In this document: piece by piece, positions 19,598 to 21,911 of the stretch
How the letters are laid out: each line of letters opens with the position of its first letter
Numbering within the stretch: the stretch's first letter is position 1
NCBI RefSeq assembly: GCF_024220175.1
Contig: NZ_CP098502.1
Coordinates: forward strand, 3,142,514-3,166,513
Reading direction: 5' to 3'
Source: Paraconexibacter antarcticus
GTDB lineage: Bacteria > Actinomycetota > Thermoleophilia > Solirubrobacterales > Solirubrobacteraceae
Length of the DNA stretch: 24,000 nt
Position numbers and translations under genes: made by a program
Notes under the pieces: generated by a model
Databases searched by the model: none
Told to the model about the DNA's origin: nothing
Seen by the model: only the letters and a program-made list of their open reading frames with translations

Positions 19598-20050
19598 ATG
19601 TCAATCATCGCCGCGGGGGAGACCGTCCCCGACTTCGTCCTGAAGACCGCCGACGGGGAGGACTTCACCCCCGCCGACCTCGAGGGGCAGACGACCGTCC
19701 TCGTCTTCTACCCCTTCGCGTTCAGCCCGGTCTGCACCGACCAGCTGCAGATCTACGACGAGGTGATCGACGAGTTCACCGCGAAGGGCGCCAAGGTCTA
19801 CGGCGTCAGCACCGACGCGACCTGGTCGCAGGGCGCGTTCAAGGACAAGCTCGGCGTCTCGATCGAGCAGCTCTCCGACTTCGAGCCCAAGGGCGCGGCC
19901 TCGAAGGCGCTCGGCGCGTACTTCGAGCCGGCCGGCATGACGAACCGGGCGCTGCTCATCATCGGGCCGGACAAGGTCGTCAAGTGGTCCTACGTCGCCG
20001 ACTCCCCGGGTGACCTTCCGGGCGTGGGCCTGCTGTTCGACAACCTCTGA
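19598..20050 (+). CDS. AhpE-like peroxiredoxin (AhpC/TSA family; likely 1-Cys)
   Basis: 150 aa. The peroxidatic site is VFYPFAFSPVCT. LSDFEPKGAASKALGAYFEPAGMTNRALLIIGPD closely parallels mycobacterial AhpE as I recall it. Confidence 0.85.
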   Translation: MSIIAAGETVPDFVLKTADGEDFTPADLEGQTTVLVFYPFAFSPVCTDQLQIYDEVIDEFTAKGAKVYGVSTDATWSQGAFKDKLGVSIEQLSDFEPKGAASKALGAYFEPAGMTNRALLIIGPDKVVKWSYVADSPGDLPGVGLLFDNL

Positions 20051-20056
20051 ATGTCG

Positions 20057-20066
20057 TGAAGGAGGG
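20057..20066. repeat. Left inverted repeat of the IS (TGAAGGAGGG)
   Basis: Exact reverse complement of 21313-21322. It starts 6 nt after the peroxiredoxin stop codon. Confidence 0.55.
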
Positions 20067-20071
20067 CCTCC

Positions 20072-20097
20072 CGGTGGCACGCTCCAGCGTGTCACCG
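20072..20097 (+). promoter_or_regulatory. 11-bp hairpin in the IS 5' end, upstream of the recombinase RBS
   Basis: CGGTGGCACGC (20072-20082) pairs with GCGTGTCACCG (20087-20097) with one G-U pair. The loop is TCCA. The RBS GAGGAGG lies at 20111-20117. Confidence 0.4.
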
Positions 20098-20126
20098 AAA
20101 GAGCAACCACGAGGAGGCCCGCTCAC

Positions 20127-21173
20127 ATGTTGCATGCTGGATTGGATCTCAGCCGCAAGCGGCTGGACTATTGCCTGCTCGCCCCGGATGGCGAGCAGAT
20201 CGAGGCCGGCGCGACGCCGCCGGACGCTGACGGGCTGCGCGGGTTCGCGCGCGGCGTAGAGACCCGGCATGGGCCGGTCCTAGTGCGGGCGGCGATCGAG
20301 TCGATGAACGGCGCCCGGTTTGTCCATGACGAGCTTGAGCGGCTCGGATGGGAGGTCGAGGTCGCCGACGCGCAGAAAGTCAAAGGCCTCGGCCCGTTGG
20401 CGTGCAAGACCGACCGGATCGACGCGTGGGTGCTCGCCGAGCTCTCACGGCGTGACCTGGTCCCCGCGGTGTGGCTTCCGGGCTTCGAGCAGCGCCAGGA
20501 ACGCGAACGCGCGCGCTGGCGCCTGTTCTTGGTGCGCAAACGCAGCTCGCTGAAGCACCGCATCCACGCGCAGCTGCTCGCGTTCGGCCATACCTGCCCG
20601 GTGTCGGACCTGTTCGGCGCCCGCGGCCGCAAGCTCCTTGCGCGGCTCGAGTTCCCCGAGCCGTGGCACTCAGGGGTCCTCGCCGCGGTGCAGATGATCG
20701 ACGAGCTCGACGCCGAGATCGCCGCGATCGACAAAGAGCTCAAAGCGCTCGGGGCCGATCACCGGTACATCCCGCTGCTGATGAGCGCCCCGGGGATCGC
20801 GTGGATCCTCGGGTACACGATCGCCGCGGAGATCGGCGACATCACCCGCTTCTCGAGCCCGAAGAAGCTCGTCGGCTACACCGGCCTGTGCCCACGCGTC
20901 TACCAGTCCGGCAACACCGACCGCCGCGGCCCCTTGACCCACGCCGGCCCGAAGTACCTGCGCTGGGCCTTGATGGAAGCCGCCGTTCACGCCTGCCGCC
21001 ATCAGGTCTACGCCGCCCGCTACCAGGCCAACAAGAAGCGCCTGGGCAAACAGCGCGGCGCCAAGGTCGCCCAGGTCGACATCGCCCGCCGGCTCGCCGA
21101 GGCGATCTGGCACATGCTCACCCGCAACACCACCTTCGCTCCGGCAGGCGCCACGCGCGCTCTGGCCGCATAG
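20127..21173 (+). CDS. IS110-family transposase / recombinase (DEDD RuvC-like N-domain plus Tnp C-domain with catalytic Ser)
   Basis: ATG 20127 lies within ORF 20010..21173, with GAGGAGG 9 nt upstream. Motifs GLDLS, ESMNG, KTDRIDAWVLA, then APGIAWILGYTIAAEIGDITRFSSPKKLVGYTGLCPRVYQSG...GPKYLRWAL. Confidence 0.9.
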   Translation: MLHAGLDLSRKRLDYCLLAPDGEQIEAGATPPDADGLRGFARGVETRHGPVLVRAAIESMNGARFVHDELERLGWEVEVADAQKVKGLGPLACKTDRIDAWVLAELSRRDLVPAVWLPGFEQRQERERARWRLFLVRKRSSLKHRIHAQLLAFGHTCPVSDLFGARGRKLLARLEFPEPWHSGVLAAVQMIDELDAEIAAIDKELKALGADHRYIPLLMSAPGIAWILGYTIAAEIGDITRFSSPKKLVGYTGLCPRVYQSGNTDRRGPLTHAGPKYLRWALMEAAVHACRHQVYAARYQANKKRLGKQRGAKVAQVDIARRLAEAIWHMLTRNTTFAPAGATRALAA

Positions 21174-21312
21174 ACGGCCCTCTCTGAGATGCGCCACCGG
21201 AGCGATGCCCCTACAGCACCTGGTCCTCACACGATGAGGCGATAGAGAGTTGAGCCCCTGCTCCACGACCGACCCAGAGGACAACGACCCAGAACCCACA
21301 CTTGACACCTCA
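21174..21312 (+). ncRNA. Candidate bridge RNA / seekRNA-coding 3' non-coding region of the IS (hypothesis)
   Basis: About 140 nt lie between the recombinase stop and the right repeat with no credible ORF. CTCTCT (21180-21185) is complementary to AGAGAG (21244-21249). There is a local hairpin CCTCA/TGAGG (21225-21239). ATAGAGAG (21242-21249) is identical to the 8 nt at the right IS junction (21322-21329). Strand and extent are unverified. Confidence 0.3.
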
Positions 21313-21322
21313 CCCTCCTTCA
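21313..21322. repeat. Right inverted repeat of the IS (CCCTCCTTCA)
   Basis: Exact reverse complement of 20057-20066. It is preceded by a consensus TTGACA at 21302-21307. Confidence 0.55.
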
Positions 21323-21338
21323 TAGAGAGCGGCCGCGC

Positions 21339-21371
21339 GGCGGCCGGCGGCTCAGACCGCCGCCGGCCGCC
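21339..21371. terminator. 12-bp perfect GC hairpin between the IS and the SRPBCC gene (possible bidirectional terminator without a U-tract)
   Basis: GGCGGCCGGCGG 21339-21350 pairs with CCGCCGGCCGCC 21360-21371 across a 9-nt loop. Four further base pairs follow one mismatch. Confidence 0.35.
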
Positions 21372-21456
21372 CCGCGCGGAACTCGGCTCGGAGTCCGCGC
21401 GCAGCGCCCCTCAGACCGCCGCAGCCTCGCGTGCGCGGAACTCCGCGAGCAGCCGC
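21351..21456. repeat. Degenerate tandem duplication (59-bp offset) of the 3' end of the SRPBCC gene
   Basis: The unit at 21351 and the unit at 21410 share exact CTCAGACCGCCGC (13 nt) and GCGCGGAACTC (11 nt) at the same spacing. 27 of the first 34 nt are identical. An 11-nt indel follows, then 10 of 13 nt match. Confidence 0.6.
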
Positions 21457-21911
21457 GGGATCTCCGCCGCGCGGTAGTCGAAGATCGCCTCGACGTCGCG
21501 GCGGACCATGAGCCGGTTCGCGAGCTCGCCGAGCGGCCCGAAGGCGATGCCGTAGCGGACCGTGTCGGTCATGATCGTGCCGGGTCGGGTGGGGTCCGAG
21601 TCATCCGGCTCGAAGGTGTGGGTGTGGTGCCAGAGGGCGTACGGGCCCTTGATCTGCGTGTCGACGAAGGCGTGCGGCGGATCCCAGCGCTGGATGCTCG
21701 TGAGCCACGAGATGGGGACGCCGCGGAGCTTCAGCGCGTACTGGATGAGTGCGCCCGCGTAGAGGTCGATCGGGCGCGGCGTCACCACCCGGAAGCGCAG
21801 CAGCGGAGGGGTCAGCGCCTCGAGGTTGAAGGCGTCGGCGAAGAACGGGAAGACCTCGTCGGGGGTCCCGTCCAGGCGCTGCTCGCGGTGCAGGGTGTGG
21901 ATGCGCATCAC
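21411..21911 (-). CDS. SRPBCC-superfamily (START/Bet v1-like, cyclase/dehydrase-type) ligand-binding protein
   Basis: 166 aa. The sequence FFADAFNLEALTPP.L.F.V........GA.I.Y.L...G.P..W...I..WDPP..F.D.Q..GPY..W.H.H.F is the pattern of the conserved SRPBCC/COG4276-type family as I recall it. Start is GTG 21911 or ATG 21908. Confidence 0.75.
   Translation of the reverse strand: MMRIHTLHREQRLDGTPDEVFPFFADAFNLEALTPPLLRFRVVTPRPIDLYAGALIQYALKLRGVPISWLTSIQRWDPPHAFVDTQIKGPYALWHHTHTFEPDDSDPTRPGTIMTDTVRYGIAFGPLGELANRLMVRRDVEAIFDYRAAEIPRLLAEFRAREAAAV

Follow-up and report, generated by a model that had tools for sequence, protein, structure and literature searches.

The region 3' of the recombinase gene in an insertion sequence (IS) of Paraconexibacter antarcticus very probably encodes a structured guide RNA, of the type called seekRNA or bridge RNA, which would name the DNA on both sides of the insertion. 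The IS lies in the 24,000-nucleotide stretch of contig NZ_CP098502.1 that was analyzed here (the window). Comparison with relatives gives us high confidence that a sense-strand RNA, covering at least positions ~21136–21264, acts as the guide of an intact and recently active IS1111-type element. The putative RNA takes in the final ~12 recombinase codons and continues for ~90 nt beyond the stop codon. A first-pass annotation had placed a candidate bridge RNA with a flank-matching guide at 21174–21329. Guides were indeed found in a conserved, covarying scaffold 3' of the IS1111-type recombinase; the interval contains the left-target guide (LTG) and the left-donor guide (LDG), while the right-target guide (RTG) and the 5' strand of helix P0 lie upstream of it, in the ORF (21139–21163). 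The features are as follows.

20045–20050, + strand: left target and GA core, CTCTGA; abuts the IS and includes the TGA that ends an AhpC/TSA-family gene
20051–20066, + strand: left IS end, with the extension ATGTCG followed by the inverted repeat TGAAGGAGGG (20057–20066); based on repeat covariation
20127–21173, + strand: IS110-family DEDD recombinase, 348 aa; its last ~12 codons would double as RNA scaffold and right-target guide
21139–21151, + strand: P0 5' strand, outer CUCCGG (21139–21144) and inner GGCGC (21147–21151); based on pairing and covariation
21152–21163, + strand: right-target guide CACGCGCGCUCU; pairs with the right flank and is encoded within the recombinase ORF, near its 3' end
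21164–21179, + strand: hairpin P1, GGCCG / CGGCC; the loop CAUAGA contains the recombinase stop codon
21182–21187, + strand: left-target guide CUCUGA; same sense as the left flank and core
21191–21202, + strand: P0 3' strand, inner GCGCC (21191–21195) and outer CCGGAG (21197–21202); based on pairing and covariation
21225–21239, + strand: hairpin P4, CCUCA CACGA UGAGG; 95–96% paired
21242–21249, + strand: left-donor guide AUAGAGA(G); repeats the right IS end and GA core in the same sense
21252–21263, + strand: hairpin P5, GAGC CCCU GCUC; 93% paired in the model-based alignment
21302–21307, + strand: TTGACA, likely -35 box; at a fixed distance from the right end across loci
21313–21328, + strand: right inverted repeat CCCTCCTTCA (21313–21322) and right end CATAGAGA (left donor and GA core); based on the tRNA-Thr empty-site comparison
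21329–21331, + strand: start of the right target; forms, with 21326–21328, the AGAGCG paired by the right-target guide

The insertion sequence and its ends

By sequence, the element at window positions ~20051–21328 belongs to the IS1111 type within the IS110 family; it is intact and recently active. The recombinase gene (ATG at 20127, stop codon at 21171–21173, + strand) encodes the DEDD (RuvC-like) N-terminal domain and the C-terminal transposase domain characteristic of the IS1111 group (Pfam DEDD_Tnp_IS110, PF01548, E=9.5e-13; Transposase_20, PF02371, E=1.1e-23). Its translation contains GLCPRVYQSG, an instance of the IS1111-type motif GLxPxxxxSG; PMC11187229 gives this motif of the C-terminal domain as GL-P----S(T)G. 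The protein is 100% identical to a P. antarcticus IS110-family transposase. Hundreds of relatives at 80–86% identity were found in soil metagenomes, plasmid-borne relatives reach at most ~35% identity, and the PDB relatives are the IS621 and ISCro4 transposases only (E~1e-12).

The 10-bp subterminal inverted repeats covary across the relatives, and their length falls in the 7–17 bp range that, together with short terminal extensions, characterizes IS1111 elements. With the GA core counted once, the extensions are 6 nt on the left and 6 nt on the right, or 8 and 4, as compared to the 7 and 3 described for ISEc11. The non-coding ends measure ~155 nt 3' of the recombinase gene versus 76 nt 5' of it, which is an IS1111-like placement. 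The 3' end has no credible ORF, in agreement with the first-pass annotation; the sole ORF, of 75 aa, starts with TTG and exits the element.

To the left, the element abuts the TGA stop codon of the AhpC/TSA-family gene (19598–20050), and to the right a GC-rich hairpin at 21334–21376 is followed by a convergent gene. Since the insertion lies exactly after this TGA and before the intergenic terminator hairpin, no gene was broken. The hairpin, an inverted repeat with 18-nt arms of 94% complementarity directly 3' of the IS and between convergent genes, is probably a native intergenic terminator now parted from the AhpC-like gene by the IS. Many insertions in the same clade lie exactly 3' of a TGA that ends a long open frame. 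Family-wide, a preference for real stop codons was not significant, with long upstream open frames at 14 of 40 TGA sites versus 25% in control frames. Another hairpin, with the 10-bp arms GGTGGCACGC and GCGTGTCACC around TCCA, is located in the 5' untranslated left end (20073–20096). Its position is kept in relatives while the arms differ (e.g. GGTGACA…TGTCACC and GATGAGAAC…GTTCTCGTC), and it may serve in translational control or be a further RNA or DNA element to which the recombinase binds.

The identical element was found in two further contexts, both on metagenome contigs. These three copies are identical between CCTCTGAATGTCG... and ...CATAGAGAGCG, and beyond these points their flanks diverge, except that CCTCTGA on the left side and AGAGCG on the right side are common to all three sites. 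The presence of identical copies in different contexts indicates that the element has been recently active and is site-specific.

The register of the insertion was obtained from a subgroup of ~70% identity that sits beside the 3' part of tRNA-Thr(GGT). One of its loci, L043, contains an intact tRNA-Thr(GGT) (1194–1268) that reads ...ATGGTAAGGAGGGGGTCGACGG..., that is, GGTAAGGA followed by GGGGGTCG. This is exactly the left flank of the subgroup (…GGTAAGGA) joined to its right flank (GGGGGTCG…), which indicates that the inserted DNA is ATG…CATAGAGA, that GA is common to target and donor, and that nothing is duplicated. The absence of a target duplication is thus a result for the tRNA subgroup, rather than for the window copy. 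Applied to the window, the same register would yield an element at 20051–21328 and a target CCTCT-GA-GCG…, give or take one GA/AG unit, so that the element may instead end 2 nt earlier, at 21326. The uncertainty at the right boundary arises because the empty site of the window copy was not found: exact look-ups of both flanking proteins gave no match, and a gapped flank pattern gave 0 matches in metagenome contigs.

Copies of one IS do not all have equally many AG units at the right junction, CATAGAG(AG)n: L030 and L033, and likewise L110 and L115, are one AG unit apart although their guides, and even the flank, can be the same. L030 also has an extra GA at the left junction. This suggests either that the crossover register slipped on the GAGA repeat or that a microsatellite-like change followed the insertion.

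The tRNA subgroup comprises L021, L023, L025, L027, L029, L034, L038–L040, L043 and many of L120–L163. Its guides are UAAGGA and CGACCCCCU, and its insertion point is in the anticodon-stem/variable-loop region of a tRNA-Thr(GGT)-like sequence. Most of the occupied sites are partial 3' tRNA copies preceded by unrelated DNA; in L043, ~150 nt separate the intact tRNA-Thr from the occupied partial copy downstream of it, as if the IS targets the leftover repeat of an integrated element. A search of the rejoined flanks of the subgroup with ARAGORN identified no tRNA, which is explained by most left flanks being only partial tRNA copies.

The right end also contains a candidate promoter element. In most of the ~125 loci for which a right end was available, exactly 13 nt separate the sequence TTGAC(A/C/G) from the CAT of that end, and TTGACA at 21302–21307 is likely to be the -35 box of a promoter that is completed only in the circle. 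At the joined ends, a composite -10 box would read GAGA/AT (the slash marking the joint) with a spacer of 17 nt.

Conserved fold of the 3' end

We compared the element with ~160 loci, 80 from genomes and 80 from metagenomes, with protein identities of 59–86%. The alignments displayed strong conservation around and 3' of the stop codon, interrupted by short hypervariable patches. Conserved structure with covariation among homologous copies, which had been put forward as a check on the bridge RNA proposal, was found for P0, P1 and P4. P1 (21164–21168 / 21175–21179) was 100% paired, with compensatory changes at 5/5 pairs. P4 (21225–21229 / 21235–21239), which corresponds to the CCTCA/TGAGG hairpin of the first-pass annotation, showed compensatory changes at 4/5 pairs. 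The inner part of P0 (21147–21151 / 21191–21195) was 98.9% paired in 36 diverse relatives and occurs in three versions (GGCGC/GCGCC, GGUCC/GGACC and GGCCC/GGGCC), with two pairs showing compensatory changes (CG to UA, 6; GC to CG, 9). The outer part (21139–21144 / 21197–21202) was 86% paired with little covariation, and a GGAG/CUCC hairpin competes with it. As a control, sliding the partners by 1–3 columns reduced pairing to 37–55%. For P5, relatives with the alternative arms GCG/CGC and GAGA/UCUC were observed, and in one subfamily the 5' arm can pair upstream instead, as read by eye from the alignment.

The pairing of P0 creates an internal loop with the RTG on its 5' side, P1 as the distal stem and the LTG on its 3' side. 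Hence, the 3' end contains a conserved structure that presents guides in loops, as expected for a seekRNA, and the arrangement is that of the target-binding loop in bridge RNAs.

Minimum free energy (MFE) and centroid folds of the single sequence recovered P0, P1 and P5. The single-sequence folding energy was no better than that of shuffled sequences (z = -0.71), a measure made uninformative by the GC-rich background. RNAalifold gave no usable consensus on raw MAFFT alignments, and the helices were therefore defined by hand and tested by pair counts. A covariance model built from these helices identified one site in the window (21150–21272, 109 bits) and no second copy; its matches in each of 100 relatives are expected by construction. 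A scan of 19900–21500 against Rfam 15 at E<=10 returned noise only, and Rfam may hold no bridge-RNA family.

No helix was assigned in 21203–21224, between P0 and P4. Two further structures were considered. A long-range helix AUGCGCC/GGCGAU was rejected, being without covariation. The stem that had been proposed between CTCTCT (21180–21185) and AGAGAG (21244–21249) is indeed complementary and pairs in the MFE fold of a short fragment, but conservation is lacking, the variable guide being its 5' arm. The stem vanishes from the fold when upstream sequence is added, and it was rejected as a conserved structure since the alignment and the folds indicate that it is lineage-specific. The direct repeat GACCCAGA at 21271–21278 and 21286–21293, also noted in the first pass, is present and likewise specific to the lineage of the window. 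It belongs to a small duplication at 21265–21293 (ACGACC…CCCAGA twice), at the place of which relatives have a single conserved CC(A/C)TGA motif.

The non-Watson-Crick cells of inner P0 and P1 consist of 35 G-U and 2 other combinations, an excess that points to the sense strand; over all helices the asymmetry is weak (53 G-U vs 44 A-C), and it is clear only in these two. Covariation and guide-flank matching identify a strand without distinguishing RNA from DNA, and both would also be expected if the guide-bearing strand acted as folded single-stranded DNA that pairs with the target, as in IS200/IS605 transposition. We consider this very improbable, given that G-U pairs are frequent in P0 and P1 and that the guide is located ~60–190 nt inside the element rather than at its tip. 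Moreover, experiments on the DEDD IS110/IS1111 family, as reported in PMC11187229 and PMC11208160, describe RNA that co-purifies and is needed in trans.

Predicted target and donor guides

Among the relatives, the hypervariable LTG patch repeats the bases that abut the left end of the same element. Examples of such guide and flank sequences are GACTGA, TTCTGA, GTCTGA, AACTGA, CCTTGA, TAAGGA, CATTGA, TCAATGA, ACAAGGA and GGAGAGA, and CTCTGA flanks likewise accompany the guide CUCUGA in other relatives. The mean match of the LTG to its own left flank was 5.5 nt, as compared to 2.6 nt in mismatched pairs, and matches of at least 6 nt were observed at 73/106 unique sites (69%) versus 1.7% of mismatched pairs, with 35 distinct guide 6-mers. 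The window sequence CTCTGA at 21182–21187 is, as the first-pass annotation stated, identical to the left flank at 20045–20050. That annotation dismissed the 6-mer as a possible chance match, a judgment reversed by the relatives, according to which it is the true programmable left-target guide and better supported than the 8-mer described below.

The RTG is located immediately 5' of the stop-codon hairpin P1 and hence within the ORF. Its mean complementarity to its own right flank was 5.8 nt versus 3.1 nt in mismatched pairs, and at least 7 nt were complementary at 41/84 unique sites (49%) versus 1.4% of mismatched pairs, with 54 distinct guides and matches in relatives of up to 9–12 nt. At the site in the window, the RTG pairs with 6 nt, AGAGCG (21326–21331), so that the guides match just 6 + 6 nt there. 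At another site of the identical IS, L002, which reads CCTCTGA-GCGCGCGTGG, the RTG pairs with 13 nt (AGAGCGCGCGTGG), including C21151, the last base of the P0 5' strand.

Both target guides thus track their own flanks among the relatives, which answers the check on guide-flank co-variation proposed at the outset, and the matching of guides to flanks known from seekRNAs was found for the target guides of the window and of its relatives. When all columns of the alignment were scanned blindly against all positions in the flanks, the same LTG and RTG columns emerged, with the same strand sense.

The RTG is translated as recombinase residues ~342–345 (…A-TRA-LAA, followed by the stop codon). Other guides in relatives encode other tail residues, and protein alignments often end at residue 337–341. 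Because the tail residues differ with the guide and the alignments stop early, the recombinase tail seems free to vary with the guide.

The short matches at the window site (6 nt), the unremarkable folding energy, and a -35 box and inverted repeat that are surely cis-acting would also fit a 3' end composed of cis-acting DNA (recombinase sites and the junction promoter) and a structured 3' UTR or terminator, the flank matches being due to chance or remnants of earlier insertions. This explanation is, in our judgment, slightly less probable still than single-stranded DNA, and the guide-flank statistics and the column scan contradict it. In dozens of distinct guides, the match to the copy's own flank falls at fixed places in the scaffold, with one strand read on the left and the other on the right, whereas mismatched pairings fail, and two copies in the same genome that differ in guide differ correspondingly in flank (L044 vs L045). 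Least probable of all is that 21152–21163 acts through the protein, the variable recombinase tail (…ATRALAA) reading the right flank: the RTG does lie in the ORF, and the C-terminal residues vary, with tblastn alignments ending at residue ~337–341 of 348, but direct Watson-Crick complementarity of up to 12–13 nt is unlike amino-acid recognition, and the left guide behaves in the same way outside the ORF.

Besides the target guides, base 21170, at the third position of the last Ala codon and within the loop of P1, tends to complement the target base just 5' of the GA core, which is 20048 in the left flank and corresponds to 21185 in the LTG. Complementarity was 67% versus 36% expected over all loci, and 44% versus 31% over 54 distinct guide/loop combinations (p~0.015), a weak signal that may reflect a handshake-like contact.

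The 8-mer ATAGAGAG was correctly reported at 21242–21249 and 21322–21329, and the view that it is unlikely to recur by chance is well founded: these are its sole two occurrences on both strands of the 24 kb, versus 0.09 expected, and 0/100 shuffles gave two. It had been interpreted as a flank-matching guide. The match is functional, but its role is that of a donor guide, covering the right IS end and the GA core, and it is nearly invariant across the family. Its variants (ATAAAGA at four loci, ATGGAGA at one and ATAGAAA at one) are matched by variants of the right end; positions 1–7 track the right end, while position 8 does not always follow.

A search for a right-donor guide identified no segment complementary to the left IS end across the family; the column scan gave a weak one-column signal. 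The sequence CACGAC (21264–21269) is complementary to the left end GTCGTG, yet was rejected as a right-donor guide because the homologous CC(A/C)TGA is conserved whatever the left end and because the tRNA-targeting clade has no such complementarity. In the GGACC subfamily (L030, L053, L060 and L065), the bases 3' of the donor guide (GAGAGC, GAGAAC and GAGCACC) complement GCUCUC, GUUCUC and GGUGUUC just 3' of P0, and this pairing would enclose the donor guide in an internal loop resembling the target loop. The lineage of the window has the local hairpin P5 where that subfamily could pair upstream.

By analogy with the mechanism published for the family, the recombinase would bind the putative guide RNA, the LTG would pair with the bottom strand and the RTG with the opposite strand of the target CCTCT-GA-GCG..., and the donor guide would pair with the IS ends once these are joined in a circular intermediate. 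The RNA would then bridge the target and the joined ends, as in the relatives that have been studied, with strand exchange at the GA core. The circle junction would complete the promoter TTGACA-N17-GAGA/AT and drive a recombinase-plus-guide transcript, from which the guide would be processed.

It is conceivable, although we are inclined to doubt it, that the clade uses a variant of this system, in which a target guide and the closing helix are located in the ORF, a lone LDG, with no right-donor guide, is combined with subterminal repeats read by the protein, and the crossover slips by one GA unit. With a guide in the ORF, every retargeting would also rewrite the C-terminal tail of the recombinase. 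GAGA is present in the donor guide and follows most target guides, and a register slip on it would account for the differing numbers of AG at the right junctions.

Known guide RNAs and significance

A comparison with published systems supports well the conclusion that the predicted guide belongs to the IS1111-group seekRNAs or bridge RNAs, a class described in 2024, and comes from a distant high-GC clade, in which the natural diversity of guides is unusually clear. For 93% of IS1111 elements, a bridge RNA has been predicted in the right end (PMC11208160). In the published IS1111 seekRNAs, the segment matching the top strand lies 5' of the one matching the bottom strand, and the two overlap in the target (PMC11187229); the guide order found here agrees with this.

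As described by Siddiquee et al. 2024 (PMC11187229), the elements encoding the seekRNAs of ISEc11, ISPa11, ISKpn4 and ISPst6 share with the window element a DEDD recombinase, the GL-P----S/TG motif, subterminal inverted repeats, and a long non-coding region 3' of the recombinase gene. Also common are two short target segments on opposite strands that overlap at the insertion point, the absence of a target duplication, and a junction promoter split between the ends, a putative one in the window element. In contrast to these, the present element has a host in the Thermoleophilia (Actinomycetota), a recombinase at most ~35% identical to any plasmid-borne relative, and an evident donor-end guide, AUAGAGA; the location of the top-strand guide and closing helix within the recombinase ORF may be a further difference. 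The guide RNA of the present element is a computational prediction.

The IS621 bridge RNA, as presented by Durrant et al. 2024 (PMC11208160) and Hiraizumi et al. 2024 (PMC11208158), has a similar helix-closed internal loop with a distal hairpin, containing an LTG that pairs with the bottom strand and an RTG that pairs with the top strand. In both systems, the guides flank a 2-nt core (GA here vs CT in IS621), and a left-donor guide covers the IS end and the core. However, the RNA is located 3' of the gene here and 5' in IS621, the order of the target guides in the loop is reversed, and the subterminal repeats are long as compared to 2–3 bp in IS621. Furthermore, a right-donor guide or a clearly closed donor loop was not found in the lineage of the window, and the IS621 protein is related to the recombinase only at E~1e-12. 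The IS1111 bridge RNAs predicted for ISCARN28, ISAzs32 and ISPa11 (Durrant et al. 2024, Fig. 6 and Extended Data Fig. 10) resemble the present one, by description, in their location in the right end, and a multi-loop, instead of a simple internal loop, contains their donor-binding nucleotides.

As regards the biology of the genome itself, this is an ordinary finding, a single mobile element between a stop codon and a terminator. For the family, it assigns a guide code, consisting of left-target, right-target and left-donor guides and a GA core, to a large IS1111-type clade without prior characterization that is common in soil Thermoleophilia and other Actinomycetota. With at least 35 left and at least 54 right guide variants among ~160 loci, natural reprogramming has provided a mutational scan of the programmable positions. 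The compact pair of recombinase and guide (348 aa and ~130 nt), from a high-GC host, is a candidate programmable recombinase. In genome annotation, such guides are worth seeking partly within the recombinase ORF.
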